This document shows positions 6,992 through 61,916 of a DNA stretch of 64,000 nucleotides, one piece after another. Location: positions 640,001 through 704,000 of the forward strand of contig CAVRKK010000002.1 in NCBI GenBank assembly GCA_963722385.1, given 5' to 3'. The notes beneath the pieces are model-generated. The model saw only the letters and a program-made list of their open reading frames with translations, was not told the origin of the DNA and did not search any database. Within the stretch, counting starts at the first letter, position 1. Every line of letters starts with the position of its first letter. Made by a program: the position numbers and the translations under genes. Source of the DNA: an uncultured bacterium. Lineage in GTDB: Bacteria; Babelota; Babeliae; Babelales; Babelaceae.

Positions 6992-7214
6992 ATCGCCTGT
7001 GCGGCTGGCACGCCTATGCTGCGGGCAGCAGGAGCGTGCTCCTGCACCTGTCGATTTTGTTTCTTTCTTTACATGCTTATTTCTCGATTTTGTTTAATGC
7101 CATAACCGTGCGGAGCGCATGATTACGGCAAACGCAATTCTCCTCACGGAGAATAGAAAGTTTCTTATATGTCAACAGCAGCTTCTCTATTAAAAGAGGA
7201 CTAAAATCTTTAAT
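6992..7214 (+). repeat. Intergenic hairpin repeat family, copy 1 (3'-truncated, type 2)
   Basis: ATCGCCT end, two 17-bp units, GCAGGAGCGTGCTCCTGCACC hairpin and CAATTCTCCTCACGGAGAAT; closely matches the 5' part of the copies at 52332 and 61314 and stops after CTAAAATCTTTAAT. Confidence 0.85.
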
Positions 7215-7324
7215 ATATATTAGCTTCTTTTTACTTAATGTACAAAACAAAGATAAGAGCTTAGAGGGGAATACACACTGTTTTATCTTTTGATACTTTT
7301 CGGCGATCGTGTTTGTTATTCATA

Positions 7325-7501
7325 AGAAGAAAAGTGCTGTACGAAGCTCAAAAGCCGTTTGATTTGATCTTAAAAAATGAACATGGTACATTTTGGCGTC
7401 GACTTATAGATATGTTCAGGAACGGTGAATTAGATTCAAGCTTCACGTTAAGCACAATTCAGACGATTCTTGCAACACTCAGTATCAGATTTAATGATTA
7501 A
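7325..7501 (+). pseudogene. C-terminal fragment of a large serine recombinase spanning the left attachment site
   Basis: KVLYEAQKPFDLILKNEHGTFWR aligns with KVLYDANKPFDLIINNEDRVLWR at the end of the 17829-19289 recombinase. Confidence 0.8.
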
Positions 7502-7524
7502 CAGATAGTTTACTTAAGAATTCA

Positions 7525-7552
7525 AGCGAGGAGGTTAGTTAACCTCCTCGCT
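7525..7552. terminator. Hairpin, probable bidirectional terminator
   Basis: AGCGAGGAGGTTA-GT-TAACCTCCTCGCT perfect inverted repeat between convergent reading frames. Confidence 0.6.
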
Positions 7553-7608
7553 AACTCCTCAGCTTAGAAAAATAGCCACATCGATGCCTTAGAGCTATTC
7601 ATGATTGA

Positions 7609-8763
7609 CTAACTATTCTTTTCATGTTTTGTTATGGTCTTTGTAACCCACGCAGATATTGTGTACAAAGCAACAGGAGCCATCGTCTCCTTAATAGTCG
7701 CGTACTCCGACAAAGCACCCGTTTGACACGTTTGAAATACATGGTTCAGATTAGGCAATTCAATGAGTGTATACTCCTTATGCCCAGATATTTCAAAAGC
7801 TTTTTTAAGAATTGGAAATATCTTAGCTGGCGAAGTAGTCATATCAAGACTTCCTACAATCGCTAGTGTAGGAACCTTAATGGCCTCCAGAATAGGCCTT
7901 GGATCATAATTCAAATAAAAGTGATATGCAGGCGAAGTTACTATATTCACATACATATCAATCTTCGGTTCGGTAAATGCCCAAGATAGCCTTTCTGATT
8001 CACGCTTCATTGAATCTGGAAGCTTAGCCCAATAATGAACTATCGCATCTCTAATGTGCTGACCAGCAGCTTGTTTATCAATTTCTTGCTGAGCTATTGT
8101 GTAAATAGCAGATCTCAAGGATTTATCACCAGCGATAAATTCTTCACTTGCACCATCTACTCGTAGCTGCAAACCTGCTTGATAAACAATATTGTCTACA
8201 CCAAGTGCAATATATGGTGCCATAAGTACCATAAAATTTACATCTTTAGATTGTGCTGCAACCATAGTAGCTATAAGGCCACCTTCACTAAGTCCAATAA
8301 GTCCTATCTGATTCTTGTTAATCTCGCTTCTTGTTTTGAGATATTCAATTCCAGCAAGTACATCTTGAGCTAGTTCCTTGCTTGTTACATTTGCCCAATT
8401 TCCAGTAGACTTACCAACACCACGTTTGTCATATCGCAGTACTGCTATACCTTGCGAAGTTAAATGTTCTGCAAGAACTTTAAAATATTTGTGCCCCATA
8501 CCTGTTACGTCACGGTCATTTGGCCCATAGCCAGCAATAAGCACAACTGCAGGAAAGGTTTCATTGGCACTATCAGGGATTGTTAATGTTCCCGAAAGTG
8601 TTATTCCTTCTGCATTATTTGTATAACTAACTTCTTCTTGCTTGTGTTGAATTTTATGTGCTTGATTTGATTGCATTGTTTGTGCCTTCTCAAAGGATAT
8701 TATCAAAAAAGTTCCCATAATAATGGATAAAACTTGAAACATTTTAAACATGTTTACATCCAA
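7609..8763 (-). CDS. Secreted alpha/beta-fold hydrolase (CocE/peptidase S9/S15-like)
   Basis: LSGTLTIP, AGYGPNDRD, LRYDKRGVG, nucleophile elbow GLSEGG, LNHVFQ; N-terminal signal-like segment. Confidence 0.88.
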   Translation of the reverse strand: MDVNMFKMFQVLSIIMGTFLIISFEKAQTMQSNQAHKIQHKQEEVSYTNNAEGITLSGTLTIPDSANETFPAVVLIAGYGPNDRDVTGMGHKYFKVLAEHLTSQGIAVLRYDKRGVGKSTGNWANVTSKELAQDVLAGIEYLKTRSEINKNQIGLIGLSEGGLIATMVAAQSKDVNFMVLMAPYIALGVDNIVYQAGLQLRVDGASEEFIAGDKSLRSAIYTIAQQEIDKQAAGQHIRDAIVHYWAKLPDSMKRESERLSWAFTEPKIDMYVNIVTSPAYHFYLNYDPRPILEAIKVPTLAIVGSLDMTTSPAKIFPILKKAFEISGHKEYTLIELPNLNHVFQTCQTGALSEYATIKETMAPVALYTISAWVTKTITKHEKNS

Positions 8764-9049
8764 AATAACTAGAGACTAAAAAAAATATAATAGAAATATT
8801 TGTTTTAAATTTGCCTGAATAAAATGTTTTATTGCAATATGCGTTACATTAAAACATTAAATACTAATAATCACCATATTTCTGATGATTTTTATGCGCG
8901 GCAAACAGAAGAAGAAAAGACTTTCACAACACACCTCATAATCAGTTCAGTATCCTTAAGATACCTAAACATTCATAATTTAATCTCTCATAATAGTGTT
9001 TTAATGTCAAATCCAATAGACAAGACTTTAACGGTCCTCACATACAAAT

Positions 9050-11071
9050 TTAAAGAATTATCTCTTTTTGAGGTAAACTTACAGCATTGTTTATCTGCAA
9101 ACTGATTTCTGGAAACTGTTCGCTTATACGTTCCAAATTGCCATTCTGACCTTTAAGATATTTATCAAAAAACTGAACTAATAACGCTCGGGTTATTTCG
9201 ATCCCGCAGGTTGGATCAAGTTTAAGCGGTTGATCACCTTTCCATGGAATAAAAAGAAAAAGGTCAGTAAATGATCCATGTAAAGCATCTTTAATAACAG
9301 CATAATGAGAAGGACCCGTCATAGCATGCCATAGTTGGCGCATACGCTCTTCTTTTTCTTTTTTTTGTAATGAGCTCGTTACAAAAAGCGCAGGTACTGA
9401 AAACCCTTGTGTGGCTAATCCTTGCGGTTTACCATCAAGATCTGCTACCGCTTTACATATACCCAACACGCAGCAAGTAGCTAGAGAAGTGCCGCCGCCA
9501 AAAGAATGCCCAAACATTCCCAAACGCTGAAGATCGAGCTTGCCTGTTAAAATACCCTGAGGATCATTGCGGTTGATTTGCTCAAGCTCCTTTACAATGA
9601 ATCTTATATCATCAACCCATATTCCTTGTTCGCGTATAGATGCTTCCGCTTCGCTTTTCAATTGCCATAACTCTTGCAAATCCTTAAGACTCATTGCAGC
9701 TATTTTTTTGCCATTAGACAAAATAACTGCATCCGTAACATAAGGGTAAGCAATCCCAACTACAATGTACCCATGGCTTGCTAACTCCTCACATAAACTT
9801 GTATAAAAATGTATAGGAGACCCAAAACCTGGTGAAAAAATAATAACCGGATAAGTAGCACACGATTCTGAAACTTTGCCACTCACATAAGCATGCGTCT
9901 TCATTCCATCAAGAAAGGAAAGCTCATTAAGCGTTATTTTAAAATGTTCTTTTAGACCCTCTTTTATGGCAGCAGTACTGAGCGGATTAATATACCAAGC
10001 CTTTGTTGCATGAGGCTTGAGTTCAGCTGGATACCATATCTGAGCAACCAATTCTCGATTATCACTAACATTCTGAGAGTGAGCCTCTCTTCTACTTTTA
10101 TCAACCAGATGATAAGGCGTTGTCCCAATCGAAAGTTTTCCCATCGGAATCGGTAGTTTTCCTGTGTTCATAACCGAACATGCACCGCGTGCTTTTTCAG
10201 ACTCGTCTGAAAGTTTAAATTTCTTTAGTATTGTGCGTTGTGCATCATTCAATTGAAACGTATCTATTTTCAAAGTTCTTTGATTATCAGTTAACTTCAG
10301 AAGCTTAGGGAGCTCAGTTTTAATACGATCAAAAATTCTATCCATAACATCCTTTGGAGAGATAGAAATTTTTTCCAGGAAATGTGCAATAGTACTGCTT
10401 AGGTGACCAAAAGTAATATGCGGCTCATAGCGATATTGCTCGCTAAAAGAAGAATCATACAATTGCTTGCCATGTGATTTTTTGTATATTTCGTTGGCAT
10501 GAAGCAATGCATCTTTGATAGCTGCCCGCAATGACATCAAACCTTCTTTTCCATCATCAATTTTTATAACCAACTCCTTGATGCTACCAAAAAAATCAAA
10601 TCGATCGCTTATTTTTACCACAGATAGCGGCCCCGTTCCTTTATGGTGCTTTTGCATATCCGTCAGAGCATCAACCAATAAATACTCATTGTGCTCATCC
10701 ATTTCACCCAAGTAGTACAAGGTAATCCATAATCGTTCTTTTTTCACGAAACTTCGTGCAAAATCCTTCACCACATCTATTTTATTGAATCGTTTTAAAG
10801 CATAATTTACTTCCTGATCAATGATCTTATTTATCTCTTCTCCGATTCTTCTTTGCAATTCATAGACGAAACTGTTTGGAGAAAACTCCGTTACCACCAT
10901 AGGACCTGGCACACTAAATTTTCTTTTAGAAGCTTCAGCTACACGATAAACATCTGACGATGGAGGTATATGAGCATCTTTAACATAACATTGATTTGCG
11001 ATCATGAATGCAGCAAATAGCATAAAAAACAATGTAAAGCCAAAATTAAACATTTTCAAACGTTCAACCAT
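9050..11071 (-). CDS. Fusion of a 2H-phosphoesterase-like domain and a PAF-acetylhydrolase-like alpha/beta hydrolase; signal peptide
   Basis: N-half LWITLYYLG...YEPHITFG; C-half RELVAQIWYP, FSPGFG, LASHGYIV, GHSFGG, HGSFTD. Confidence 0.75.
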   Translation of the reverse strand: MVERLKMFNFGFTLFFMLFAAFMIANQCYVKDAHIPPSSDVYRVAEASKRKFSVPGPMVVTEFSPNSFVYELQRRIGEEINKIIDQEVNYALKRFNKIDVVKDFARSFVKKERLWITLYYLGEMDEHNEYLLVDALTDMQKHHKGTGPLSVVKISDRFDFFGSIKELVIKIDDGKEGLMSLRAAIKDALLHANEIYKKSHGKQLYDSSFSEQYRYEPHITFGHLSSTIAHFLEKISISPKDVMDRIFDRIKTELPKLLKLTDNQRTLKIDTFQLNDAQRTILKKFKLSDESEKARGACSVMNTGKLPIPMGKLSIGTTPYHLVDKSRREAHSQNVSDNRELVAQIWYPAELKPHATKAWYINPLSTAAIKEGLKEHFKITLNELSFLDGMKTHAYVSGKVSESCATYPVIIFSPGFGSPIHFYTSLCEELASHGYIVVGIAYPYVTDAVILSNGKKIAAMSLKDLQELWQLKSEAEASIREQGIWVDDIRFIVKELEQINRNDPQGILTGKLDLQRLGMFGHSFGGGTSLATCCVLGICKAVADLDGKPQGLATQGFSVPALFVTSSLQKKEKEERMRQLWHAMTGPSHYAVIKDALHGSFTDLFLFIPWKGDQPLKLDPTCGIEITRALLVQFFDKYLKGQNGNLERISEQFPEISLQINNAVSLPQKEIIL

Positions 11072-11272
11072 AATAAATCCTTAATTATAATAACCAGTTT
11101 AGATGATATGATCCCTAGACTGCAACGCTTATTAATTTGAGCTATCATTTCAGAGAAAAACGCTACACCTCATTAAAATGTTTTTTTAGTTCCCTATTGA
11201 TAGATGGGATAACTCGGCTTTTGCCTCACGGGACTTCAGAATGGCTGAATAGCAGGCCCAAACAGCCAATTC

Positions 11273-12675
11273 TTGGTTGTCTTATGTCCTAAGATTAAGG
11301 AATACCGGGAGTCTCTTTCGGCACTTAGCATCAAGCTTACGAGCTACGGTGGCTGGCCGATCAGCGTAGAATTTAAGCCATCTCCATACAGCAAGACACA
11401 GTATTCATATGCCCCGCTCAAGCCCGTTACTGTAGCTGGAGACACGTATAATCTTGCTGATATGGATGCCAAAGCATACTTGGATCTTTATCGTCGCCAT
11501 CCGCAAGCAATTGATCCTGAGGACATGGATATGATTCAGGGGCGCATTCTGTTAAATACCGATTTTCTAATAGCTTCGCCGCAAGGGCCGAAAATTTATT
11601 GTTATAATTTTATAACTAACAGCGATCCCGAGCAGTATAAAAAAGAGCTCAAGCGTATTATAAGCCGCATGATGCTTGAGTGGTTCACGAGCCCAACGAG
11701 CAAGTTTTTCCAAGAGCGTTATAAAATTGCACACGCAGCGCTCACGAAGTATTCTCAAAAGAAAAGGGGGTTCTTATACCGGGTACATCAGTAACGACAC
11801 AGCCGAGCGAAGCTCAAGAGGCTCAAGCTTTTTGGAGCAAATATCACGCATTGCAGCAAAAAAAGCGTACCGATTTTCGGGCTTTGGTGCTCTCAAGGGG
11901 TTATCATGACTGGAAAGCAGACTTACTCGATGAGGTTATGCATGATAAAGAGGAGAGCGCTTTGCTTGCGTTTCTTGGTGACGATTTATTAGCAGCAGGG
12001 TACGCTTTGGTGATACTATTGTTTCCTGAAGAGTACACCGATAATGAATTGCTATACGCCTATAACTTTTTGAGGGATCTGCGAAGGGTTCCGCTGGCCT
12101 CACGTGCTGAAATTGATCCCATGTGGATCAATGGAGAAAATACACGTTTGCTCAAAGAGCTTATACGGAAGAATCTAGAGTTCCAGAAGACGCCGCTCAA
12201 GCAGGAAATATTTCTTCTCAATATTGTATTTCAGCCGCACTGTTTGTCGGGATATCTTGGCCATGTCGCGCTTGATAAAAAGCCTTATCTTGCCGGTATG
12301 ATAAAGCTGCTAGCATACAATGATCTTCGAGCTAGACATAATGAAGCATTGGCTGTATCAGTCGATGGCATTGATAATAGTTGGCTCCAAGAGCAGGATT
12401 ATTTAATTTTTAAGCAGGCTTTGGAAACATACTTTACCGATAAAAAGAATACCGTACCTAAACAGCAGCTGTTTCTTATTAATCTTGTGAAAATTGCCAC
12501 ATATCGTGATAGTCTCGATGTTAATGAATTATATGATAACTGTGTTACAAGCGATCGTGTGCAGCTCAACGCCTATAACATGCTCCGCCAGATGCTCAAC
12601 AAGCCCCGTATTCCTTCGCTCGATCATATCAATATGACCTGGCTCAACAGTCTCCCGGTCAATAAATTTGCCTAA
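11273..12675 (+). pseudogene. Hypothetical gene apparently split by two frameshifts
   Basis: ORFs 11273-11794, 11676-11909 and 11851-12675 overlap in succession, all with non-ATG starts; frame switches fall near homopolymer runs at ~11757-11770 and ~11858-11864. Confidence 0.5.
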
Positions 12676-12927
12676 GAATATCAAACAATCAACTATAAGT
12701 TTGCATTTTACCGTTTTTACCCTTTCCATGCCACCTATTCTCACATCTTCCTCATCCTATGCAATGAAAAGCATGAGCAATTCCTCTCAAATCCTTAAAA
12801 AAGCTCATCAACAGCTGCTAAAGCTTGACGTTAAAGGCTGTATATCCTTGACGCGGAGTAAAAAATTTACTAGCATATTCCACACTAAAATTCTACCTTT
12901 TAGGCCAAGAAGAAGGACAAAATCAAT

Positions 12928-14936: not shown

Positions 14937-14939
14937 ATA

Positions 14940-17828: not shown

Positions 17829-19289
17829 ATGAAAGCAATTCTTATCGCTCGCGTAAGCACGGAGGAGCAAAGGGAAGCCGGCAATTCTTTACCAGCACAA
17901 GTAGCACGTCTAGAAAAATATTGTTTGAGCAAGGGCTTTACTATTTGGAAGACCTATAGTTTTGACGAAAGTGCCTATAAAGCACAGCGTAGCGAGTTTG
18001 ATGCGATCTTGGACATGATTAATAGCCAAAAAGAGAAAATTGTTGTGTGCTGCGATAAAGTAGATCGGCTCACGCGCAATATCTTTGATAAGCGCGTATC
18101 GCTTCTCTATGAGAAAGCGTTAAACGACCAAGCTGAGCTACATTTTGTTTCTGAAGGACAGATCATAAATAGCTCTATTTCTGCGGCCACAAAATTTCAG
18201 TTTAGCATCAGTCTCGGGCTTGCAAAATATTACTCAGATGCGATTAGCGATAACGTTAAGCGAGCTACCGAGCAAAAGCTGCGTAAGGGCGAATGGATAT
18301 CTAAGGCTCCCCATGGATACGATTACGTAACATTATCTGATGGCAAAAAAGACCTCAAAATAGTAGAGCACGAGGCATACCTGGTTAAGAAGGCTTTTGA
18401 GCTTTATGCTACCGGCGCTTTTTCTCTCAATCTCTTGCTCAAAAGATTAAAGGAAGACTTTGGTGTTGTCTGGAACAAGAGCTTTCTGGGCAAGCTTTTT
18501 ATAAACCCCTTTTATTACGGCATAATGGAGATTAAAGGCAAGCAATATCCCCATAAGTACCCACCACTTATAACTAAATCACTCTATGACCAAGTACAGA
18601 AAACAAAAAGCAACTTTAATAAGCGGAAAAAGTTCAAGTATGCTGGCCTGCCTTATATTTATCGAGGGTTGCTTCGCTGTGGCGATTGCGGACTCGCCAT
18701 AACCCCAGAGAAGCACAAGGGCTTTGTTTATTACCATTGTACCCAATATTATGGCAAGCATGATGCTACCTGGTTTCGGGAAGAAAAGATAACCGAGCTA
18801 TTAGGAAGCGTATTTAAGCGCTTACAAATGTCTGACAATATCACAAACCAGATTAGTGAAGCTCTTTCTACGGATCATGCCAATAAAGCTAATTTTACTG
18901 AAAAAAGGCGTTCTGAGCTTACGACAGAGCATAAAAAATTAACCACAATGCTCGATAATCTCTACCTTGATAAACTACAAGGGAGTATTACTGAGCGCGA
19001 TTATGACAGATTTTACAGCCGACTCCGCGACCAACTCATTGAAGTTGAGTCCCATCTTGGCCAGTTAGAAGATGCAGATGAAACTTATTATAAAACTGCA
19101 AAGTGCTTACTGAAGCTCATATCCAAAGCCCACCAACTCTTTTTAAATTCGGAAATGGAAGAACGACGGTTACTTATCAAGCTCGTACTTTCGAACTTGA
19201 GGATAGAAGGAGAAAAGGTGCTCTACGACGCTAATAAGCCATTTGATTTGATCATAAATAATGAGGATCGTGTACTTTGGCGTCCCTAA
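17829..19289 (+). CDS. Large serine recombinase (integrase) with zinc ribbon and coiled coil
   Basis: ARVSTEEQ catalytic Ser motif, DKVDRLTR, APHGY, NPFYYG, LRCGDCG...YYHC; last codons overlap the tRNA-Glu 3' end. Confidence 0.95.
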   Translation: MKAILIARVSTEEQREAGNSLPAQVARLEKYCLSKGFTIWKTYSFDESAYKAQRSEFDAILDMINSQKEKIVVCCDKVDRLTRNIFDKRVSLLYEKALNDQAELHFVSEGQIINSSISAATKFQFSISLGLAKYYSDAISDNVKRATEQKLRKGEWISKAPHGYDYVTLSDGKKDLKIVEHEAYLVKKAFELYATGAFSLNLLLKRLKEDFGVVWNKSFLGKLFINPFYYGIMEIKGKQYPHKYPPLITKSLYDQVQKTKSNFNKRKKFKYAGLPYIYRGLLRCGDCGLAITPEKHKGFVYYHCTQYYGKHDATWFREEKITELLGSVFKRLQMSDNITNQISEALSTDHANKANFTEKRRSELTTEHKKLTTMLDNLYLDKLQGSITERDYDRFYSRLRDQLIEVESHLGQLEDADETYYKTAKCLLKLISKAHQLFLNSEMEERRLLIKLVLSNLRIEGEKVLYDANKPFDLIINNEDRVLWRP

Positions 19290-19355
19290 GGGGATTTGAA
19301 CCCCTGTTTTCGCCGTGAAAGGGCGATGTCCTGGACCGGGCTAGACGATAGGGAC
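19278..19355 (-). tRNA. tRNA-Glu(TTC)
   Basis: Reverse complement GTCCCTATCGTCTAG...CTTTCAC...GGTTCAAATCCCCTTAGGGACGCCA folds as a cloverleaf with encoded CCA. Confidence 0.97.
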
Positions 19356-19363
19356 TTAAATTT

Positions 19364-19439
19364 TGGTGAGCCGCGTTGGATTCGAACCAACGACCCACAG
19401 CTTAAAAGGCTGTTGCTCTGCCAACTGAGCTAGCGGCTC
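19364..19439 (-). tRNA. tRNA-Lys(TTT)
   Basis: Reverse complement GAGCCGCTAGCTCAGTTGG...CTTTTAA...GGTTCGAATCCAACGCGGCTCACCA. Confidence 0.97.
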
Positions 19440-25988: not shown

Positions 25989-27190
25989 TCCATGGGGTCA
26001 ACCTGCATATTATCACCTATACGGATTTCCCAGTGAAGGTGATAACCACTGGCATAACCAGTTTTACCGAGCTTACCAATTGGGTTGCCCTTTTCAACCA
26101 TATCACCCACTTCGAGCGGAGCAAAAGAATCGAGATGAAAGAAGAGCGATAGAACGCCACAGCCATGATCGAGGACAACGGTATTGCCACTGTGAGCGTA
26201 GCGCTCCTTTATAACAACTTTGCCATTTTGTGGTGCCCATATCACGGATCGTGGAACGCCAAGAAGATCGACAGCGTTGTGGCGATACTTGCCGCGGTCC
26301 TGGGTAAGGCGCATGGTGCCATATTCGGTGGAGATGCCGCGCATTTCTAGAGGTATGTCAAAAGGACCACGCCATAATTTACGCGAGATTGAATTGCGAG
26401 AGGCTTCTTCAAGGTCTTTTTCGAGCTCTCTTTCTGAAAGACCTTGTTCAATCTCTTCTTTTATTTTATCAGGGTTTATGGTGAGTACTTGCTTTTTGAA
26501 TGGGTACATAACGACATGGAATTTATTTTCAAGCACGGCGCGATTGCCAACGTAATCGCTTAACGCAATACGTAATAGGTGTTCATTAGGTGCTTCCTCG
26601 CAGCTGATAGGGAAAAAGCATTCATAAATAAGCGAGCCATCAGATTCTGGGTAGCAGGGGTACTTTTTAGACAGGGCTTCAATGGTGGCATCTTTAAGCT
26701 CTTTATTAACTTGGAACTGTATATGTAATGTCCTGCCTTGAAATACCCGGCAATTGTTATCGGCTTTTACAAAAGCAGCTTGTAGCGGTGCGTTATCGAT
26801 GTAAAAGTTAATTTCTTTAACGGTTTCGTTTTTGTTGCGGGAGCCATCGACGGCGCTTATTTTGAGCGTATGCTTGCCCGGTGTTAATGAGCTTGTTGTA
26901 ATGGTAAAGCCGTAGTCAAACACCTTGCGGTTTATTTTATAGTGATTTATTAACGGTTTGTCATCGAGCCAAATCGAGATATCGGCCACCGTATTCTTGT
27001 CTTTTCCTGTTATGGTACAAGCGATATCGCCGGCGTAATAGCATTGGTCTTCGATGCCTGTCAAGTTTATCTCGGGAGGATAGGTATCAAGCGCTGATCG
27101 CGCGTAATAAATGCCACCTGCCGTGAGAACGAAAATAATGGGTAAAAAAATAAACGTGCGGAGTCGCGCTGTCATGACCGCCTCTTTCAA
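25967..27190 (-). CDS. M23 family metallopeptidase with N-terminal Ig-like domain
   Basis: HNAVD, GNTVVLDHG, GKTGYASGYHLHWE, VDP. Confidence 0.92.
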   Translation of the reverse strand: MKEAVMTARLRTFIFLPIIFVLTAGGIYYARSALDTYPPEINLTGIEDQCYYAGDIACTITGKDKNTVADISIWLDDKPLINHYKINRKVFDYGFTITTSSLTPGKHTLKISAVDGSRNKNETVKEINFYIDNAPLQAAFVKADNNCRVFQGRTLHIQFQVNKELKDATIEALSKKYPCYPESDGSLIYECFFPISCEEAPNEHLLRIALSDYVGNRAVLENKFHVVMYPFKKQVLTINPDKIKEEIEQGLSERELEKDLEEASRNSISRKLWRGPFDIPLEMRGISTEYGTMRLTQDRGKYRHNAVDLLGVPRSVIWAPQNGKVVIKERYAHSGNTVVLDHGCGVLSLFFHLDSFAPLEVGDMVEKGNPIGKLGKTGYASGYHLHWEIRIGDNMQVDPMEWTKLGF

Positions 27191-27422
27191 ACCAAGTCAG
27201 ATAAATACATATCAATAATAGCGTTTTTTAGGCATAACGCAACCGAAATTAAGTTGTCTACGAAGGCGACTCTGGCTCATAAGGTATGTCGCGGTTTGAT
27301 AAATCTGTGAGTCATGTATAAGATTTGTCAAGCTCAACTGCGCGATTCTGACAACCTGTCAATATTTTGCTAGACTATAGAGTAATTATCTCGAATTTTA
27401 GTTGCTTAGGATGGGGATAGCT

Positions 27423-28676
27423 ATGCTTGAGTTATACCATGATGATCCGCTTATAGCCCAGCTTATTAATGCTGAAGAGCAGCGCCAGGAAGCCGAAATT
27501 AATCTTATAGCATCGGAAAACTATGCTCCAGCGAGCATAAGGGAGCTGATGGCTTCGGTACTCACCAATAAGTATGCCGAGGGGTATCCTGGCAAGCGGT
27601 ATTATGCAGGTTGTAATATTGTCGATGAAGTCGAAGCTTTGGCCATTGAGCGTTGCAAGAAGCTCTTTGATGCCGAGCATGCTAATGTGCAGCCCCATTC
27701 GGGCACGCAGGCCAACATGGCATTATATGCCGCTTTGCTCAAGCCTGGTGACATTATCATGGGCATGGATCTTGCTTCCGGCGGTCATCTTACGCATGGG
27801 CATTTAGTTAATTTTTCTGGCATTTTATATAAAAGCGTATCGTACCATGTTGACCAACATACGGAGCTTCTTGATTACGAGGCGATTAGCCGGCTTGCTG
27901 AGCAGCACAAGCCTAAATTAATTATAGCTGGTGCTTCTGCGTATTCGCGTATTATCGAGTTTGACAAGTTCGCAGCGATAGCGCAAAGTATTGGCGCGTT
28001 TTTTGTTGCTGATATTGCGCATATTGCTGGGCTCGTTGCGGCAAGATTACATCCAAGCCCTATTGGCTGTGCTGATATAGTCTCTGGCACCACCCATAAA
28101 ACACTGCGAGGGCCGCGTGGCGGGTTTCTTTTGAGCAAGGCGTTTTATAAAGAGCGCCTAGATCGCAGCGTAATTCCTGGCATTCAAGGGGGCCCGCTTA
28201 TGCATGTTATTGCTGCTAAAGCGGCGGCGTTTCAGGTTGCCAGTAATCCTGATTTTATTGCTTATCAACAGCAAGTAGTTTCCAATGCGAGGTTGATGGC
28301 CGACGTATTACAAGGCAGGGGCTATCGTATTGTTTCAGGTGGTACTGATAATCATCTCTTCGTGCTCGATCTGCGCAATCGCGGGCTAACCGGCCTTCAA
28401 GCGGAGCAGTTGCTTGGTCAAGCGGGTATTACGGTTAGTCGCAGTTGTATACCCTTTGACTCGGAGCGGCCGTGGGTAACAAGCGGTATTCGTTTAGGCA
28501 CCGCTGCGGTTACTACCCGTGGCTTTGGGCCCGAGCAGGTGGGCATTATTGCTGAGTGGGTGGATGAGGTGCTGAGCCAGCCCGGCAATGAGGTGCTTAG
28601 GCAACGTGTGCGTGAAAAGAGCAAACAGCTTTGTGCTGCTTTTCCTGTATATCGGGATCGAGCGCGGGTAAGGTGA
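27423..28676 (+). CDS. glyA: Serine hydroxymethyltransferase
   Basis: LIASEN, NKYAEGYPGKRYY, GGHLTHG, TTHKTLRGPRGG, SGGTDNH. Confidence 0.98.
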   Translation: MLELYHDDPLIAQLINAEEQRQEAEINLIASENYAPASIRELMASVLTNKYAEGYPGKRYYAGCNIVDEVEALAIERCKKLFDAEHANVQPHSGTQANMALYAALLKPGDIIMGMDLASGGHLTHGHLVNFSGILYKSVSYHVDQHTELLDYEAISRLAEQHKPKLIIAGASAYSRIIEFDKFAAIAQSIGAFFVADIAHIAGLVAARLHPSPIGCADIVSGTTHKTLRGPRGGFLLSKAFYKERLDRSVIPGIQGGPLMHVIAAKAAAFQVASNPDFIAYQQQVVSNARLMADVLQGRGYRIVSGGTDNHLFVLDLRNRGLTGLQAEQLLGQAGITVSRSCIPFDSERPWVTSGIRLGTAAVTTRGFGPEQVGIIAEWVDEVLSQPGNEVLRQRVREKSKQLCAAFPVYRDRARVR

Positions 28677-28678
28677 AT

Positions 28679-29012
28679 ATCGCCTCCGCGGCTAGCGCGA
28701 CTACGCGTCGAGCGGCAGGGCGGCGGCCCTGCACCCGTTGCCTAATTTATTTTTCTCTACATGCCTGTCTTTTATATTTCTTTCCATGCTATAAGCATGC
28801 GTGGCGCATGCTTATAGCTATCGCAATTCTCCTAACGGAGAATAGAAAAATATGGGTTTTTTATCATGGAGCGTAGCGCACATGATAAATGGCGTAAGTT
28901 ATCGTACGCTTTGGCGTACGATAACTACTCACCAAGCCTATAAGCACTAAGCATAAACGCTATGGGGATTGTTAAGGGACGATGTCCCTTAACCGCTAGC
29001 CGCGCAGGCGAT
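28679..29012 (+). repeat. Intergenic hairpin repeat family, copy 2 (complete, type 1)
   Basis: Terminal inverted repeats ATCGCCTCCGCGGCTAGCG...CGCTAGCCGCGCAGGCGAT and at least six internal hairpins; the right end is partly duplicated at ~29057-29073. Confidence 0.9.
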
Positions 29013-29085
29013 TAGATTCAATTTGCTGCATTAGTGTGCCTGACTTTACTGGCTTACGCAGGCGATTAGATTCGTTGCTCTTAAG

Positions 29086-30693
29086 CTACCGCTTAATAAA
29101 TCGCGGGTTATGCTCCATATGCGGTGCTGAATTGTTAATCTTAAACAACGGCCTGATGTCCATTTTTAAGCCCGCATTGAACTTGCTTAATAGCTCAACG
29201 GGCGTATAAAGCGCCATGTTGCGGTTTTTGGAATAAGTCTGAACCAAATTGAGTGGGATATTCACGATCTGCGACGTTACGGGGCAAAGTCCGATGAGCG
29301 AAAAGTTGCTAAACTGCTCCCATGTTGCCTCAAGCTCATTAGGCGTATGATATCGAAGCGATTCGAGAGCACCCCTGATATCCCGCTTGCGATACAGTGT
29401 CATATCCAACGTACATATCTGGCGCCACTCTCCTCTACCTGCCATAAACTGCCACGCATAAACCGTAGGCGTAATTTTCAGCAAGGGCGGCGTACCCGTA
29501 TAAGCACCCCTGGGCAACACAGAATAACAATGAGTAATGTTTTTTCCCAAGCGCAAGTAAAAGCCATGGGCACCCGTTAGCTCAAGCAGCATGAGCGCAG
29601 CGTCAAGATCAATCGCATCTTTGATAATAATATCATCAACAGCAAATGCAACATAATCACCAGCTCGCTGATACACTGAGGCAAGCGTCAAAGCCTTAAG
29701 ATCAGCAGCGGTTCGCTGATGATGAAATATGGCTTGAGGGAAGTGCGCCTTCAGCACGTCATAGGCACGCCCGTAGCTGCTATTCGACGTTGCGTAAATA
29801 ACAACAACCTCATAAGCGCCGGTTACGTGTGCATAACAAGACTCAAGGAAGGCATACAATTGTAAGGGGCGATCTTTAGAATAAACAATGAGTCTCGCCT
29901 TCTGCTTGTCGCTCGTGACCGGCTGGGCAAGGGGCTGATACTTTCGCTTTGAGCGAATTAAGCGCTCTTGCTGCTTTTCTTTTTCTGATGGTGCCGGTAC
30001 TGGCGAGTGCTGGATGCAGAGAATATCATCAATAAAGCGATAGTGCTCTTTGCCTGCCATTTCAAGCAAGGGGAAAAGATAGGCTTTCTGAACATTGCCA
30101 TAGAAGTGACCACGGTCTATTAAGTCGCCAAGCTTAATCTGTTTTAAAAGCCAGGCACGACACGTAAACGGCAAACCAATGCACCAAGCTTTATGTGAAC
30201 GGAAAGTATTGTCCTGGTAGATGTTAAGAGGAAAATCTCCAGCGATACGCTTGCCGCTTAAGCCCTTGAGCTGGTAATTGCCGGACGCCGCCCACACCGT
30301 CGAATCTTCATAAAGCTCTGCCAACTGGGCAAGCACATTCTGGTTCGCAAAAATTTGGCCGGGCAACAATATAAGAATAACGCTCTGATCGGGGCAGCTT
30401 AAGCCTGTCGTATAAACGGCCTGTACCAACTCTTGACGGTGGCTATTAGAAGCGACCGTTAAGCAAGATTCATGCTTTTGCATAAAATCCCGGACTTCTT
30501 TAGCCTTTAACGAGCCATTGTTGATAGCGTAAAGGTGCCAGTTGATATAACGCTGATCGGTAAGCGATGCGAGTGTCTCAAAAAGGTCTTCCGATACGAC
30601 AGGTGGAACAATAATTGAAAATTTGCATGAAGCGCCTTGGATAGGCGCCGAGATGAGAGCTAAACAAAAAATAACGTTTTTATATATGCGCAT
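29086..30693 (-). CDS. Two-domain GT-A (GT2-like) glycosyltransferase with signal peptide
   Basis: N-domain resembles the GT2 domain of 39770-40990 (FPLLEMAG vs LPMLEMAG); C-domain has VYSKDRPLQL and FAVDD. Confidence 0.7.
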   Translation of the reverse strand: MRIYKNVIFCLALISAPIQGASCKFSIIVPPVVSEDLFETLASLTDQRYINWHLYAINNGSLKAKEVRDFMQKHESCLTVASNSHRQELVQAVYTTGLSCPDQSVILILLPGQIFANQNVLAQLAELYEDSTVWAASGNYQLKGLSGKRIAGDFPLNIYQDNTFRSHKAWCIGLPFTCRAWLLKQIKLGDLIDRGHFYGNVQKAYLFPLLEMAGKEHYRFIDDILCIQHSPVPAPSEKEKQQERLIRSKRKYQPLAQPVTSDKQKARLIVYSKDRPLQLYAFLESCYAHVTGAYEVVVIYATSNSSYGRAYDVLKAHFPQAIFHHQRTAADLKALTLASVYQRAGDYVAFAVDDIIIKDAIDLDAALMLLELTGAHGFYLRLGKNITHCYSVLPRGAYTGTPPLLKITPTVYAWQFMAGRGEWRQICTLDMTLYRKRDIRGALESLRYHTPNELEATWEQFSNFSLIGLCPVTSQIVNIPLNLVQTYSKNRNMALYTPVELLSKFNAGLKMDIRPLFKINNSAPHMEHNPRFIKR

Positions 30694-44552: not shown

Positions 44553-44901
44553 ATCGCCTGTGCGGCTGGCGGTTAAGGGACAGCGTCCCTTAACAATCCT
44601 AAAGCGTTATGCTTAATGCTTATAAGCTTGGTGAGTAGTTATCGTACGCAAAAGCGTACGATAACTTACGCCATTATCATGTACGCTGCGCTTCATGATA
44701 AAATTTAATATCGCTTGTCTATTTTCCGTCAGGAAAATTGCGTTTGTCATAACCATACGGGGCGTATGGTTATGACATTAAACAAGTCAAGAAATAAGCG
44801 TATAAAGAAAGAAGCAGAGCCTTTCGCTTACGCATATTGGTGTGGGTGCAGGGCCGCCGCCCTGCCGCTCGACGCGTAGTCGCGCTAGCCGCGTAGGCGA
44901 T
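44553..44901 (-). repeat. Intergenic hairpin repeat family, copy 3 (complete, type 1, inverted relative to copy 2)
   Basis: Reverse complement is colinear with 28679-29012, including the GTTAAGGGAC..GTCCCTTAAC, GTTATCGTACGC..GCGTACGATAAC and GCAGGGCGGCGGCCCTGCACC hairpins. Confidence 0.92.
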
Positions 44902-52331: not shown

Positions 52332-52746
52332 GAATATCGCCTGCCGGGCCGACTTCGCCAAGGCTGGGCGCCTCCGCGGCGAGCGCGCCTGTGCCGCGGG
52401 CACACCTACGCAGTGGGCGGCAGGAGCGTGCTCCTGCACCTGTAGATTTTGTTTCTTTCTTTATAAGCTTATTTCTCAACTTTGTTTAATGCCATAACCA
52501 TGCGGAGCGCATGATTACGGCAAACGCAATTCTCCTAACGGAGAATAATTTTTTGTTCTCTAGTAAATCTCTAAAATCTTTAATAAATAAAAGTCTGATG
52601 AGGCCCTCCGTAATAGCCCGGCGCATCCTTCCGGGATGCAAGGTGCATGAGTAGGGCCGCTTGGATTAGGGGCCGGGGAAAGCGGCGCATGGGTTGCAAG
52701 GGGGTTTGCGAGAACCCCGCTTGCCGCTCGCCGCGGAGGCGTATTC
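52332..52746 (+). repeat. Intergenic hairpin repeat family, copy 4 (complete, type 2)
   Basis: Three 17-bp units, shared 5' hairpin module, 3' end CGCTCGCCGCGGAGGCGTATTC complementary to the 5' unit. Confidence 0.9.
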
Positions 52747-53629: not shown

Positions 53630-53783
53630 GGGACCATCTCCGGTATCATAAGGGAGTAAATGTTATTATGTATAACGCACTTTAGCACAAATTTTTCTAA
53701 TTTTCTACTTATTATCAGAGATATAAGGTATGCTAGTAATATACAAAAAAAGAATTACCTGAGCCGATAACGTTCGATTTACT

Positions 53784-56599: not shown

Positions 56600-56843
56600 A
56601 TAATTTTTTAGACCACCATACGTAGCGATAGTTAATATACGTATTTAGCCTACACTACTTTGTTTATCAAAACAATAGTATGCCTTAAAGGCGATTATAC
56701 CAAGGTTCTCCGCAAATTTACATGCAAAAGCAGGCTTTCGGACCCGATATTTGTTAGCAGGGCCTTGGCGAGCCGCTTGACGAATTAAACATATTGACTA
56801 ATAGTTAATAAGGTTGTTATAATTATTCAAAATAGCTGTTAAG

Positions 56844-58349
56844 TTGGTAAAAAATATGAGGTCTTTAATGAATTTAAAATTTATATGCGCACTACTTTTT
56901 CTCTTGTTCGGTGCAGCGCCTATAATGAGTATGGAAGGCGGCAAGCGACCTAATAAAGAAAAAGAAAAGGAAAAAGAGCAAGAACGTTCGCGCGCTGAAG
57001 AAGCAGAAAAAAAAGAAGAAGAACGACCAGCAACCAAAAAGCCTCGTTATGGTCAAGCCGAAGAGGCTGAAGCACCAATAAAATTGGAAGAAGCAAAGCC
57101 TTGGAGCGGTGTTGCACAAATAGAATTGCTCTCTTCTCTGAGCCAAGATATTGTTAATTACGATGATGCGCGGCTTGCTCTTGAAAATGGGGCCGATGCC
57201 AGTTCATGGCATGGTATTATAGAGGAAGCGTTTGATAGCCCACTTTTGTTTCTACTCCGCCGAATTGCCAGCCCAGAAAATTGGGGAAGGCAACAAAATC
57301 CACTGAAACTCATAGAACTTCTTATCGAATATGGTGCTGATGTTAATCAGGCAGGCTTCGCGCAAGGAAGGTCCGAGCTTCCGCTTTTAATAGCATTAGA
57401 CAATAACAATAAACAGCTTGCCGAATGGTTACTTAAGCATGGAGCTAATATATGGCACCATGCTTTTGTTGAGAGAGCTACAAATTCTCGTGATATTCTG
57501 CTTCTTCTTCAGCGTTATGGGCTTGACGTAAATACTTGGATAGGTACTATGCTGCACAGCGCTACAAATGCTTATTTGCAAGCCATAAGATTGGGGAACA
57601 TGAGCGAGCAGTTGCAAATGAAAAAGGTGCTCGATTATCTTATATTTTTGGGCGTTAACCCTGAGAAATATCAAGCGCAGAGACCGCTTGAAGGGTACCT
57701 CAACACACTACTTCCTATTTTAAGAAACATTGCTTTGGACCAAACAGAGGCAGCTTTAGAAGGTCTCAAAAAAATTGAAGGCTCCCTTCGGCCATGGATG
57801 TATGCTTACTTGCCTATTAAAGATGACTCACGAATAGACCTTGTAAACATTGCTTTTCGTCTGGCAGCTGCTCATGAGAATATTGCTATTGTCACCTATC
57901 TTTTTCGTCAATTTATGCCTATTTTAAGACCGAGCACTCTTCGGACATCTTTCTTGACGGCAGCTCTCACAGGGCATATTTCTATTCTTGAGATGCTGTA
58001 TAATGCACAATTGGTCGAAGGAACCGAATGGACTCAAAACCTCAATGGGGCACTGAGGGCTGCTGCTCAGCAACGCCATAGAGATGTGGTAGCTTTTATC
58101 TTAAAAATAGCTAAAGAGCTGGCTGCTGTGGGGAAAGTTGAGCCCCTCAAACTTCTTGATGTAATCGAGCATCTCAATGTGCTGTTGGGCAATCAGAAAT
58201 TGCCTCAAAACATAAGAAGGCAGTTTGAGCAAATCCGACAAATGCTCTGGGATCAAATTATTCTTAGGACTCAAGAATCAATGGCGGCGGCCTCTTCTTC
58301 GCAGCTAAGACCAGGAGCTCAGCCGCCGGGCTATTTTGGAGGTGAGTAA
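56844..58349 (+). CDS. Secreted ankyrin repeat protein (ATG start 56856 or 56868)
   Basis: Signal peptide, K/E-rich tract, LLIEYGADVN, LLKHGANI, AAAHEN, AALTGH, AAQQRH ankyrin-like repeats. Confidence 0.85.
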   Translation: MVKNMRSLMNLKFICALLFLLFGAAPIMSMEGGKRPNKEKEKEKEQERSRAEEAEKKEEERPATKKPRYGQAEEAEAPIKLEEAKPWSGVAQIELLSSLSQDIVNYDDARLALENGADASSWHGIIEEAFDSPLLFLLRRIASPENWGRQQNPLKLIELLIEYGADVNQAGFAQGRSELPLLIALDNNNKQLAEWLLKHGANIWHHAFVERATNSRDILLLLQRYGLDVNTWIGTMLHSATNAYLQAIRLGNMSEQLQMKKVLDYLIFLGVNPEKYQAQRPLEGYLNTLLPILRNIALDQTEAALEGLKKIEGSLRPWMYAYLPIKDDSRIDLVNIAFRLAAAHENIAIVTYLFRQFMPILRPSTLRTSFLTAALTGHISILEMLYNAQLVEGTEWTQNLNGALRAAAQQRHRDVVAFILKIAKELAAVGKVEPLKLLDVIEHLNVLLGNQKLPQNIRRQFEQIRQMLWDQIILRTQESMAAASSSQLRPGAQPPGYFGGE

Positions 58350-58462
58350 TTCAGGTATGGAAAAGCGAACAATTTCGCCACGCTTATTTTTCTTGCGCTT
58401 TATTTATTCCAGATGTTAAATTAAGTAAGAGTATATTAGAAATATATAAACAAAGGAAAATA

Positions 58463-58984
58463 ATGAAGCGCTTTTCCCTTGTCGTAATGCTTACTCTTAC
58501 GTGCGCGCTGGGCCTTTCAGGAATGGCTAAAAATAGCCACCGTTCGCCTGCTCACAAAAATAATAGCTGGCAAAAAGGCAGCAAAAGGTCTTTGCCCATC
58601 CATTACAATCATAAGAAAACTTGGCGTTCGCCATTCGGGGCTGGCCACCGTTATTCTTCTCGCCCATTTCACTCGAGGAAAGACTATCTTTCTGGTCGGC
58701 ACTACCGCGCTCACCCACAACGCTCGCCAAGTCGAATTAAGTGGCGCCGCCATCACCGCAGAAACTTCCCTCGCTCTCGGCGCTTTAGTAGCGGGGGATA
58801 TGGCTGGTCAGACGGAGATTACTATGACTTTGGCGGCTGGGACTATGGCGGTGATGCCTGGGGTTGGGGCTGGTGGGGGCCTATGCCACCCTATTTTTCT
58901 GCAGGCTTGGGGGTCGGTTGCGCATCGGGTATGCCAACACAGGGTTATGCTTGGCTTGGTTTTGGGTATCCACCTTATTACTGA
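58463..58984 (+). CDS. Secreted low-complexity protein (R/H/S-rich, then G/W/Y-rich)
   Basis: AAGGA RBS, signal peptide MKRFSLVVMLTLTCALG, strongly biased composition. Confidence 0.7.
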   Translation: MKRFSLVVMLTLTCALGLSGMAKNSHRSPAHKNNSWQKGSKRSLPIHYNHKKTWRSPFGAGHRYSSRPFHSRKDYLSGRHYRAHPQRSPSRIKWRRHHRRNFPRSRRFSSGGYGWSDGDYYDFGGWDYGGDAWGWGWWGPMPPYFSAGLGVGCASGMPTQGYAWLGFGYPPYY

Positions 58985-59141
58985 CCAAGCGTTCCATCTA
59001 ATGCAAACCCAGCAATATGTTGTATGAGTTCTGCGGGAGCGATGTTTGTCAGGTGGCGAACAACTTCCTCCGGATGAGCCGCTGCATAGCGTGATTGAGC
59101 TGTTCAAGGATCGCCCCGCGCTTATGCAGCGGGCACTTTTA

Positions 59142-59524
59142 ATCGCCTGCGCGGCTGGCGCGCCTCCGCGGCGAGCGGCAGGACTTAGTCCTGCACCCGT
59201 TACCATTTGTTCTCCTGCCATACTGTCCATCTTGCTCTATTTGCTATGCTTGTATAATGTGCCATACCCATGTGGGGCACATGGCTAGGCACTTTCGCAT
59301 TCACCTTCGGTGAAGTTTGTAATAACCCCTTTTGTTCATCGCCAGTAAAGCTTTTAGGGCTGTTTGAAAAAATCATGGAAAAGTCCGAATTTCATCATGC
59401 CTTGCATGATTGGCTTTTGTTTGGTGACGCGTTACGCGTCACCAAACGGCTAGAGAGCCAGTACGCAGAACCCGCCGGGATTGTTAAGGGACTACGTTCC
59501 TTAACCGCCGGCTGCGCAGGCGAT
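59142..59524 (+). repeat. Intergenic hairpin repeat family, copy 5 (complete, type 1, most diverged)
   Basis: TIRs ATCGCCTGCGCGGCTGGCG...CGCCGGCTGCGCAGGCGAT; same hairpin order as copy 2 with different stem sequences. Confidence 0.85.
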
Positions 59525-59874
59525 TTTATTCCCAGCTACCATGACCAAAGCCTCCTGTTCAAAGTTTGCTTTTGACATGCAGCTGTGTAGGCATATATCA
59601 AACCCATGATGGTATATGGAAGGGCCGATCTGAGAAAAGGCCCTCAAGCTCCACATGAGGCTGGTTGGAAAGTATCGTATAAGGTTCGCTCAGTAAGCTG
59701 GGTGGCTAAAGGTATAAAAGCTAAGCTAATGCTGCTTGGCAAAGTTATTGGCGTAGCGACTTCGCGGTTGCCACTTCACGAATGCTTCTGTTTATAACCA
59801 TACAAGCTTGTTGTGAAAATTCGCAGATTTGTTATTCTCAAAGAAACATTGATGCGCTTATAAAAGAATTACTC

Positions 59875-61308
59875 ATGAATGATGCCTACGAAGTTGATAT
59901 CGGTATAGAAGTTCACGTTCAGCTCAAAACCAGGAGCAAGCTTTTTTGCTCAAGCGCGGTTGCGCCAGCAGACGAGCCGAACACACATATTTGTCCCGTC
60001 TGCATCGGGCATCCAGGTGTTTTGCCCGTCCTTAACACCGAAGTCATCCATTACGCCCTTATGGCAGCCCTTGGAACGTCTTCTGTCATCGCGCCTGAAA
60101 GCGAGTTTGCTCGTAAGCATTATTTCTATCCCGATTTGCCTAAAAATTACCAAATTACTCAGCATGATAAGCCTTTTTGCACCGAAGGGCATATACTCAT
60201 CCGCCTCGAAGATGGGGCGATAAAAAAAATTCGCTTGATACGCATCCATATCGAAGAAGATGCTGGCAAGAATATTCATGCGCCTCACAGCAATGAAAGT
60301 TTTGTAGACTTTAATCGTGCGGGTACGCCGCTCTTAGAAATAGTAAGCTATCCTGATATTAAAAGCTCAGCTGAAGCGCGGGCCTACCTTAAGGCACTTC
60401 GCACGCTTGTTTTGTATCTTGATATTAGCACAGGCAATATGGAAGAAGGTGCATTACGAGCTGATACCAATGTCTCGGTGCGCAAAAGAGGCCAGGCAAA
60501 GCTTGGCACGCGCTGTGAGCTCAAGAACATCAATTCTTTTAAATTTATTAGCGACGCTATCGAGTATGAAGTTGATCGCCAGATTGCTTTGCTCGAGCAG
60601 GGGCGGCCGGTGCTACAGGAAACTCGCTCATGGGATACCAAGGAGCACAAGACGGTAACGCTGCGCAGCAAAGAAGAAGCGGCCGATTACCGCTACTTTC
60701 CCGACCCTGATCTTCCTAAAATTAGAGTTACCCCCGAGGATGTGGCGCCAGTGCAAAAAAGCATGCCTGAGCTTCCCCATGAAAAGTTTGATCGTCTATG
60801 CTCGGTCTATGGACTCACGCCCTATGAAGCAGAAATACTTATCACAGATAAAGCATTAGCCGATTATTACGAGCGCGCTGCTGAAGCTTATCCAAGTAAG
60901 AGCCTTATTAACTGGGTGGTTCGGGACATACTCAAGCTGCTTAAAGAAGAGAAGCTTGCTATTGACCAGCTTTTAATGAGCCCCGTATACCTTGCTGAGC
61001 TTGTCTCTTTGCTTGAGCGTGGGACTATCAATAATCGCATCGCGCAAGAAATTTTTGAGGAAGTTTCCCGTACGGGCAAATCACCAAGCGAGCTCGTAAA
61101 GCTCAAGGGCCTTGAGCAGCTTGGCTCATCCGAAGAGCTTGAGGCAGTTATCAAAGCGATCATTGCCAACAATCCCGAGCAAGTTGCCGGCTATAAAGCA
61201 GGAAAAGAAAAGCTCTGGGGCTTCTTTGTCGGCCAGGCCATGCAAAAAACCCAAGGCCGCGGCAATCCGCAAGTTATCAACGAGCTTCTGAAAAAGTATC
61301 TCAAATAA
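59875..61308 (+). CDS. gatB: Asp/Glu-tRNA amidotransferase subunit B
   Basis: IGIEVHVQL, FARKHYFYPDLPKNYQITQ, HIEEDAGK, DFNRAGTPLLEIVS, KEEAADYRYFPDPDL. Confidence 0.98.
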   Translation: MNDAYEVDIGIEVHVQLKTRSKLFCSSAVAPADEPNTHICPVCIGHPGVLPVLNTEVIHYALMAALGTSSVIAPESEFARKHYFYPDLPKNYQITQHDKPFCTEGHILIRLEDGAIKKIRLIRIHIEEDAGKNIHAPHSNESFVDFNRAGTPLLEIVSYPDIKSSAEARAYLKALRTLVLYLDISTGNMEEGALRADTNVSVRKRGQAKLGTRCELKNINSFKFISDAIEYEVDRQIALLEQGRPVLQETRSWDTKEHKTVTLRSKEEAADYRYFPDPDLPKIRVTPEDVAPVQKSMPELPHEKFDRLCSVYGLTPYEAEILITDKALADYYERAAEAYPSKSLINWVVRDILKLLKEEKLAIDQLLMSPVYLAELVSLLERGTINNRIAQEIFEEVSRTGKSPSELVKLKGLEQLGSSEELEAVIKAIIANNPEQVAGYKAGKEKLWGFFVGQAMQKTQGRGNPQVINELLKKYLK

Positions 61309-61313
61309 CGACT

Positions 61314-61916
61314 GAATATCGCCTCCGCGGCGAGCGCGCCTGTGCCGCGGGCACACCTACGCAGTGGGCGGCAGGAGCGTGCTCCTGCACCTGTAGATTT
61401 TGTTTCTTTCTTTATAAGCTTATTTCTCGATTTTGTTTAATGCCGTAACCATGCGGAGCGCATGATTACGGCAAACGCAATTCTCCTAACGGAGAATAGA
61501 TTTTTTGTTGCCAGTAGTCTCTTTTCCCAAAATCTTTAATAAATAAAAATCTGATGAGGCCCTCCGAGTAGCCCGGCGCATCCTTCCGGGATGCAAGGAC
61601 AGAATTAGGCGGAGTAGCGCCTAATTTGACCGAAGTAGCTCTTCTTTAGAAGAGCGAAAAACGTAGGCGGAAGGGGCCGTTTGAATTAGGGGCCAGGGAA
61701 AGCGGCGCACGTGTTGCATAGGACATAAACATGCGAAGTAACGCATGTTTTGTCCAGAGCGGCCTTCGAAAGAAGGCGATTAGCGTAGGTTGCGAGAACC
61801 CCGCTTGCCGCATCGCCGCGGAGGCGTATTCATTGAGCGACAAGCTAATTTTCTTTTTTAACGCTTTGGACGCTCTCGCTTAGTTATGCGCCTGCCGCTC
61901 GCCGCGAAGGCGATTC
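61314..61916 (+). repeat. Intergenic hairpin repeat family, copy 6 (type 2, expanded, two right ends)
   Basis: 5' ~190 bp nearly identical to copy 4; extra internal hairpins; right ends at ~61831 and ~61916. Confidence 0.9.

Follow-up and report, generated by a model that had tools for sequence, protein, structure and literature searches.

Extragenic hairpin units of the REP, REPIN and BIME families occur as singlets, tandem arrays and inverted doublets with structured spacers, as far as documented in the consulted sections of their descriptions (PMC3116915, PMC3733652, PMC6006769). Here we report on a repeat of comparable appearance from an uncultured bacterium of the phylum Babelota, which was recognized in a window of 64,000 nucleotides (the whole stretch analysed; contig CAVRKK010000002.1, positions 640,001 to 704,000 of the forward strand) and proved to be a gene-less element with about 55 copies in one small bacterial genome. 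The likeness to these sections concerns its extragenic, multicopy and palindromic nature, the inverted doublets, the compensatory stems and the single-stranded DNA (ssDNA) biology. The differences from the same sections are the following: the element lacks the GTAG/GTGG or CGTC foot, since GGGT precedes the hairpin in the arm alignment and GTAG is only found there as one variant of a variable loop position; it lacks a RAYT gene flanked by arms; its doublets span 300-600 bp; a single arm sequence crosses phyla; and its mutation footprint in the flanking genes is not part of the REP descriptions compared. The spread of transposase-less REP-like repeats and their effects on the host are the question addressed here.

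The second relative is the RRS (TRIP1) repeat of E. coli, for which the consulted parts of two reports describe two conserved, fork-oriented copies with lagging-only gaps and about 2 kb of ssDNA that fades from the repeat (bioRxiv 10.1101/2023.10.01.560376, PMC13308219). Judged from these parts, both systems share a GGGTGCAGGG..CCCTGC hairpin, which in RRS is embedded in a multi-hairpin repeat of ~200-222 bp, but our element is mobile, two-armed and found in either orientation, and its terminal unit is absent from RRS. A blastn comparison with the 222-bp RRS sequence gave no match to the element, and the arm model assigned 12-13 bits to RRS versus 35-57 bits to ten arms of the window, some of which were used to build the model. 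Hairpin repeats acting as ssDNA are also known from the Ssn nucleases with their NTS/SRM sequences, and the NTS loop core CCGCG..GCG presented in the sections consulted is similar (PMC11893778); the difference from these sections is that no GIY-YIG gene is bracketed by arms in 10 genomes and that the small copy of the host genome is broken and flanked by other repeats. A local intense nucleotide skew that is tied to repeats and gene conversion characterizes the GRINS in the part of their description consulted (PMC8256042), but there the skewed repeats reside inside polyketide synthase coding sequence, whereas the skew of our element is polar and located in unique flanking genes. Neither the arm family nor its footprint was found described in the literature searched, supplements not covered.

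An intact copy consists of an inverted pair of a ~45-bp arm that flanks mosaic hairpin interiors. Read outward, the arm comprises GGG(T/AT)T followed by a hairpin, which a short linker separates from the terminal hairpin; the latter has a covarying stem of four pairs that encloses a conserved GCRNA loop. One example is the arm at 28695..28738 of the window (minus strand), with GGGTGCAGG-loop-CCTGC, a short linker and the terminal hairpin CGCC/CGAC-GCRNA-GGCG/GTCG. The terminal unit is frequently repeated on the left side with a period of 17 nt. The left half (arm, T-rich spacer of ~45 nt, hairpins B and C) is common to the copies; the right half exists in two principal classes, loops can contain additional nested modules, and the copies are therefore mosaics. 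Hairpins B and C exhibit 78% identity between copies and the spacer, the only hypervariable part, 46%; the two distances are weakly correlated (rho 0.22). The earlier note, which was made from the letters of the window, had proposed that structure rather than sequence is conserved. This is wrong for the ends, as the arm is nearly identical across phyla, and the inverted arms represent terminal inverted repeats of ~20-35 bp in full copies. The compensatory changes claimed for the stems were recovered: 47 cells are altered on both sides and 4 on one, pairing holds in 88.6% of the cells (33 of 46 core copies with fetched locus), and none of 500 shuffles reached this level of two-sided change, a count that carries no p-value because the copies are related. 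Two candidate functions were rejected. The class II interior contains CTGATGAG, reminiscent of a hammerhead ribozyme, the core of which has the consensus CUGANGA plus GAAA around stem II; here the stem is followed by GCTTG or GTTCC, not by GAAA, and there is no Rfam match. The T-rich spacers gave, with 46 queries, 23 matches of 15-23 nt outside the elements (E 0.009-0.034), which are treated as chance, and a reading as guides was therefore rejected.

The host genome (G000; 1.6 Mb, two contigs) harbors 52 clusters detected by blastn with the six copies of the window, which were classed as 36 full-length and 16 partial; nhmmer adds seven regions, four of which resemble decayed copies. The copies are intergenic, their orientation relative to the neighbouring genes is balanced (27 vs 25 of 52), and convergent gaps are somewhat enriched among the insertion sites (16/52 vs 98/571). 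The comparison of filled and empty sites in relatives, which the earlier note had suggested, was successful at two places. The rny-ymdB gap measures 482 bp with the element in G000 and 5-35 bp in G001, G015, G006 and G020, thus being tight in four of the six relatives listed (another gene lies between in one, and one is a partial match), and the gatB-recombinase gap is shorter than 100 bp and free of the element in G008. Insertion of the element into a formerly tight operon junction is hence shown for rny-ymdB. In G001 the element is present in a version of its own after glyA, in opposite orientation. A consistent target duplication was not found at the copy ends, whose calls are imperfect for some copies, so that a duplication of 2 bp is possible; the ends are ragged, and variable GAAT-type 5-mers precede both of them. 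Contigs from four sequencing runs contained no joint that skips a whole copy, which is uninformative since assemblies break at the repeat; no RNA data set was among the sequencing runs listed for it.

The intact copies are accompanied by a mutation footprint, which we scored at four-fold degenerate sites of the flanking genes with correction for coding strand and replichore. The strand running 5' to 3' into the element carries an excess of G + T, on both sides and in both gene orientations, and when 447 control regions were resampled 2000 times, this excess was never reached in any of the bins up to 4 kb. Expressed as a step (left minus right skew over 2 kb), it amounts to 0.21 for full class I copies (positive at 22/24) and to 0.19 for full class II copies (12/12), and the sign is hence positive at 34 of the 36 intact copies. 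The corresponding values are -0.001 at 642 other gaps, 0.007 at 14 insertion sequence (IS) copies, 0.03 at 29 intergenic gaps with hairpins of >=12 bp and 0.007 at convergent gaps (n=114). The footprint decays with distance from 0.11-0.14 within 1.5 kb to 0.06 at 1.5-2 kb and ~0.02 beyond, and it is equal on the origin and the terminus side (0.070 vs 0.064; 38 copies). Within the window it is clear on both sides of the copy at 28679, with a plus-strand excess of G+T of +0.20 over 2 kb in the left zone (27150..28650, plus strand, glyA) and a minus-strand excess of +0.16 over 2 kb in the right zone (29040..30540, minus strand), and it is mixed at the other copies. For a test with orthologs from element-free sites, seven genes were fixed beforehand; five of them shift in the predicted direction in G000, where the skew of rny is the highest of 30, that of ymdB the lowest of 26 and that of gltX the second.

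A second occurrence of the footprint comes from the clostridial genome G261, in which none of 40 loci has an inverted unit nearby and the arms point one way. Here the excess is confined to the outer side, with 25/29 and 27/34 positive loci in the first two 500-bp bins; the G-C excess declines from +0.24 within 500 bp to +0.155 up to 1 kb and ~0.04 by 1.5 kb, and the step is positive in 27/36 loci (p = 6e-4), all scored without an element-free control set. A short portable sequence with a directional, distance-limited and measurable effect on its flanks is thus present in two distant lineages, and because the arm is portable and its effect measurable, the question of how such repeats spread and act on their hosts becomes testable. 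If the relationship is causal, each intact copy reshapes codon usage in housekeeping genes over ~3 kb, and the local skew used for inferring replication origins is distorted. A separate observation concerns 25 tRNA loci of G000 away from the element, which exhibit a step of opposite sign (-0.085; 4/25 positive), as if the strand leaving the locus were G/T-rich.

Single-stranded DNA gains T and G by deamination, as does the lagging template. The excess of G and T, taken together with this rule, therefore implies that the entering strand is repeatedly exposed, or recopied with errors, just outside the arm, and judged from sequence the repeat seems to be a spot where the DNA is repeatedly opened. 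We regard the repeat very probably as a REP-like element at the level of DNA, and it is probable that the arm itself causes the footprint; that it is an orphan relative of REP, REPIN and BIME that acts as ssDNA and leaves a polar footprint is the reading we favour, with slightly better than even confidence. The unit is the polar arm of ~45 bp, in which a hairpin is joined by a small terminal hairpin whose loop is closed by G..A; in G000, two such arms are arranged tail to tail around exchangeable hairpin modules. The arm would fold transiently, and the outward-running strand would be cut or opened by a hairpin-recognising enzyme, either of the host or encoded in trans. About 1-1.5 kb of this strand would then be removed outward from the arm and refilled, thereby exposing the entering strand to C-to-T and A-to-G damage. 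Through these ssDNA events the element would also be copied, modules would be swapped and copies would undergo gene conversion with one another. This nick-and-resect route is the one we favour, with somewhat less than even weight. More tentatively, and with considerable doubt, the arm may represent a cis signal of at least five phyla that is read by general host DNA processing instead of an own transposase, opens ~1.5 kb in one direction, mutagenises one strand and spreads by the same events, which would make it a mobile, dispersed relative of RRS and a way for orphan REP-like repeats to multiply.

The earlier note had left the choice between a mobile element and a multi-copy structured RNA selected for folding. 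[quoted passage not shown] The Rfam search returned no family at gathering or E-value thresholds, and thus no match to a known family. Of the 42 parsed copies, to which three further copies without a perfect hairpin-C stem do not belong, 40 have a hairpin-C loop that on the reverse strand is c(GNNA)g or c(GNA)g (GTCA 19, GTTA 13, GTGA 3, GCCA 2, GGCA 1, GCA 1, GGA 1). These are 35 non-GNRA tetraloops, 3 GNRA tetraloops and 2 triloops, and DNA mini-hairpins with such loops are far more stable than their RNA forms according to the part of the report consulted (PMC13037366). As the loops of hairpin C are mostly not GNRA, they fit the rule for DNA mini-hairpins. Throughout the element, G..A-type loops are found in 45/234 hairpins on the reverse strand and in 15/234 on the other, the background being 16/1686 as counted with a slightly longer stem. 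The mismatches of hairpin B on the strand given in the earlier note are A.C in 22 and G.T in 6 cases, its loop occurs flipped (GGG/CCC, TGG/CCA), and stem swaps run from Watson-Crick to Watson-Crick pairs. Hairpins B and C hence look tuned to the reverse strand, and the loops point to ssDNA rather than RNA. An RNA would account for the two-sided stem changes, and the A.C mismatches become G.U on the other strand (22 vs 6), but only 3 of the 38 G..A tetraloops are GNRA, triloops and tetraloops interchange, the orientation of the element is independent of the genes, no Rfam family is matched and an RNA role leaves the flanking footprint unexplained, all of which makes this alternative highly improbable.

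Among the explanations at the DNA level, a polymerase roadblock comparable to E. coli RRS, with a folded arm that stalls synthesis and a post-replication gap of <=2 kb that requires no dedicated nuclease, profits from the shared GGGTGCAGGG..CCCTGC hairpin, from the fact that the two RRS hairpins rank first and second when 22.5 kb of E. coli DNA are scanned with the arm model, and from the agreement between the length of the footprint and that of the RRS gaps. It is unlikely nevertheless: in the parts of the RRS reports consulted, the gaps affect the lagging template only and hence the origin side, and the equal strength on the origin and terminus sides therefore argues against a plain lagging-strand gap. 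Moreover, the footprint of G261 is located on the C-rich strand outside the arm and not 5' of the G-rich strand, and RRS, which is devoid of the terminal unit, reaches a mere 12-13 bits. The mirror image seen in G000, strong only at two-armed copies, could also arise if the two arms pair, are extruded into a long stem-loop and are cut by SbcCD, the resulting two-ended double-strand break being resected on both sides, and sbcD is present in five of five genomes tested. We consider this scenario quite unlikely, since the one-sided footprint at the unpaired arms of G261 argues against a symmetric break and the other intergenic hairpins of >=12 bp yield a step of 0.03 only (29 sites). Very unlikely, finally, is an ordinary DDE-type MITE that inserts where the skew already switches, with the footprint as a property of the target site. 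Inverted ends, lineage-specific insertion, the over-use of convergent gaps and the failure of two of the seven ortholog tests would all agree with it, but there are neither target duplications nor sharp ends, convergent control gaps (n=114) lack a step, as do partial copies in a similar type of target, and the flip at rny-ymdB is extreme in G000 alone.

Several observations weigh against the preferred reading of a REP-like ssDNA element with a causal arm. The partial copies of G000 have a step of 0.03 (positive at 9/16), copies with only the left arm are not clearly one-sided (5/10 left, 7/10 right), and the strength of the footprint is uncorrelated with copy divergence (rho 0.14, n=46). Two of the orthologs tested, topA and groEL, contradict the prediction, and G000 ranks second of 31 genomes in this test. 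The scoring in G261 without an element-free control set belongs here as well, and the loci of Binatota (46, with one sign on either side), Planctomycetota (24) and other host relatives (20) displayed no local step. The folding energies of the whole element barely separate the strands. With respect to a dedicated enzyme, seven of 10 further genomes (incomplete) that bear the arm or are related have Y1/RAYT matches, none of them flanked by arms, three of 22 GIY-YIG loci in 10 genomes are near one arm and none is bracketed by arms, and a Pfam search with 150 of the 187 neighbouring open reading frames detected one resolvase and no transposase or HUH match.

The cognate transposase or HUH nuclease envisaged in the earlier note did not emerge either, as no transposase, RAYT or Ssn nuclease was matched to the element. 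G000 encodes ISAs1-, IS630-, IS4/IS701- and IS5-like transposases, IS200, IscB and TnpB; IS200 (two copies), IscB and TnpB were rejected as partners, given that none of the four end sets read resembles the arm. No Y1 match was obtained in G261, clustering of the neighbouring open reading frames revealed no common mobility protein, and nhmmer with all 52 copies detected no IS end outside the clusters; a partner may have been lost or may be missing from the assembly. The repeat is an orphan. Correia elements and similar bacterial MITEs are likewise gene-less inserts with inverted ends, and our element differs from them by the absence of a target duplication, its ragged ends and the absence of an IS with matching ends among those read. 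Some of the mobile genes deserve mention in their own right. The two IscB genes are located at C2:1160226-1161509 and C1:291690-292889, of which the former is full-length, encodes RRXRR and HNH domains and has a leader that resembles an omega-RNA; a TnpB element is also present. The two IS200 copies are near-identical and intact with clear hairpin ends, and one of them lies among repeated HINT-domain and large multi-copy genes. A broken small GIY-YIG gene (C1:296557-296762) is preceded by a different hairpin repeat and has intact relatives in G008. A frameshifted IS3-like remnant (C2:439075-439930) abuts and truncates one class I half-copy; its rve fragment was rejected as a partner, being frameshifted and absent from G001 and G051.

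The arm is found within the host phylum and beyond it. The strict arm pattern occurs in 5 of 261 genomes of the phylum, and the covariance model retrieved 4 of 141 genomes in another sample and added two genomes from a second family, in which arms can be recognised; the interiors vary between species and the arm is kept. Across GTDB, the pattern is present in at least 128 stretches, including Binatota, Planctomycetota, Clostridia and Chloroflexota, where it is multicopy and occurs as single units, as tandem arrays of 40 bp and as short doublets in inverted orientation; some few of the matches listed are chance matches within genes. Exact matches number 119 in the clostridial genome G261, 9 in G263 and 16 in G265, with none for a reversed-pattern control. 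Viral contigs contained two matches, both within a coding region, and two further scans were empty; a metagenome scan for the B-C junction gave 0 matches, and blastn against plasmids and phages only short weak ones. In the solo arms of Binatota, the C-rich strand tends to coincide with the strand that is G-skewed on both sides (~29/45 loci), which suggests a bias in their orientation relative to replication. In G052, an array of direct repeats of ~50 nt is located upstream of gatB, and the same repeats are found inside one element of that genome.

All six copies of the window are present where the earlier note had placed them (6992, 28679, 44553 on the minus strand, 52332, 59142 and 61314), and in five of them one end and a stop codon are no more than 25 bp apart (6967, 28676, 44538, 52330, 61308). 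The common order of features described for them holds for the left half (hairpin A, T-rich spacer, B, C) in all six; to the right of hairpin C the copies diverge in class, with class I at 28679 and 44553, class II at 52332 and 61314, and a third interior combined with a class I right arm at 59142. Copy 1 (6992..7154, plus strand) is a left half with terminal units, hairpin A at 7028-7048, the T-rich spacer, B at 7099-7129 and C at 7137-7154, and its right arm is missing. The full class I copy 2 (28679..29012, plus strand) comprises the left arm (28679-28738), B (28788-28818), C (28826-28843), D (28861-28888), E (28897-28926) and the right arm (28963-29012), and its DNA fold (28677-29012) is far beyond chance with z = -10.5 and -10.7 for the two strands. 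Copy 3, also full class I, occupies 44553..44901 on the minus strand (A 44845-44865, B 44746-44776, C 44722-44738, D 44674-44701, E 44637-44666, right arm 44553-44602). The full class II copy 4 (52336..52741, plus strand) has tandem 17-nt terminal units, A (52420-52440), B (52491-52521), C (52529-52546), the class II interior from 52595 and the right arm (52689-52741). Copy 5 (59142..59524, plus strand) has a left arm and a class I right arm at 59475-59524; its hairpins B (59261-59290) and C (59300-59314) are variants, the latter with a GAA triloop on the reverse strand. Copy 6 (61318..61914, plus strand) is of class II with nested extra hairpin modules, a right arm at 61785-61829 and an additional terminal unit at 61880-61915.

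The statement that no transposase gene lies beside any copy needs a qualification, since a tyrosine recombinase gene (62067-63032, plus strand) is located about 150 bp from the copy at 61314. It scores below all XerC/XerD/integrase cut-offs, and it is not a cargo gene of the element because its ortholog follows gatB in G008, where the element is absent. A frame of 140 codons (58808-59230, minus strand) begins within copy 5, overlaps the plus-strand gene 58463-58984 and has no Pfam match; it is probably a shadow frame. Elsewhere in the window, a 71-bp repeat (80%) at 7330-7400 and 19214-19284 corresponds to the 3' end of a gene for a serine recombinase (17829-19289) that adjoins two tRNA genes (19281-19439), and the ensemble of repeat, recombinase and tRNA genes likely represents the remains of an integrative island. 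A tmRNA gene is located at the edge of the window (63730-63999, minus strand).

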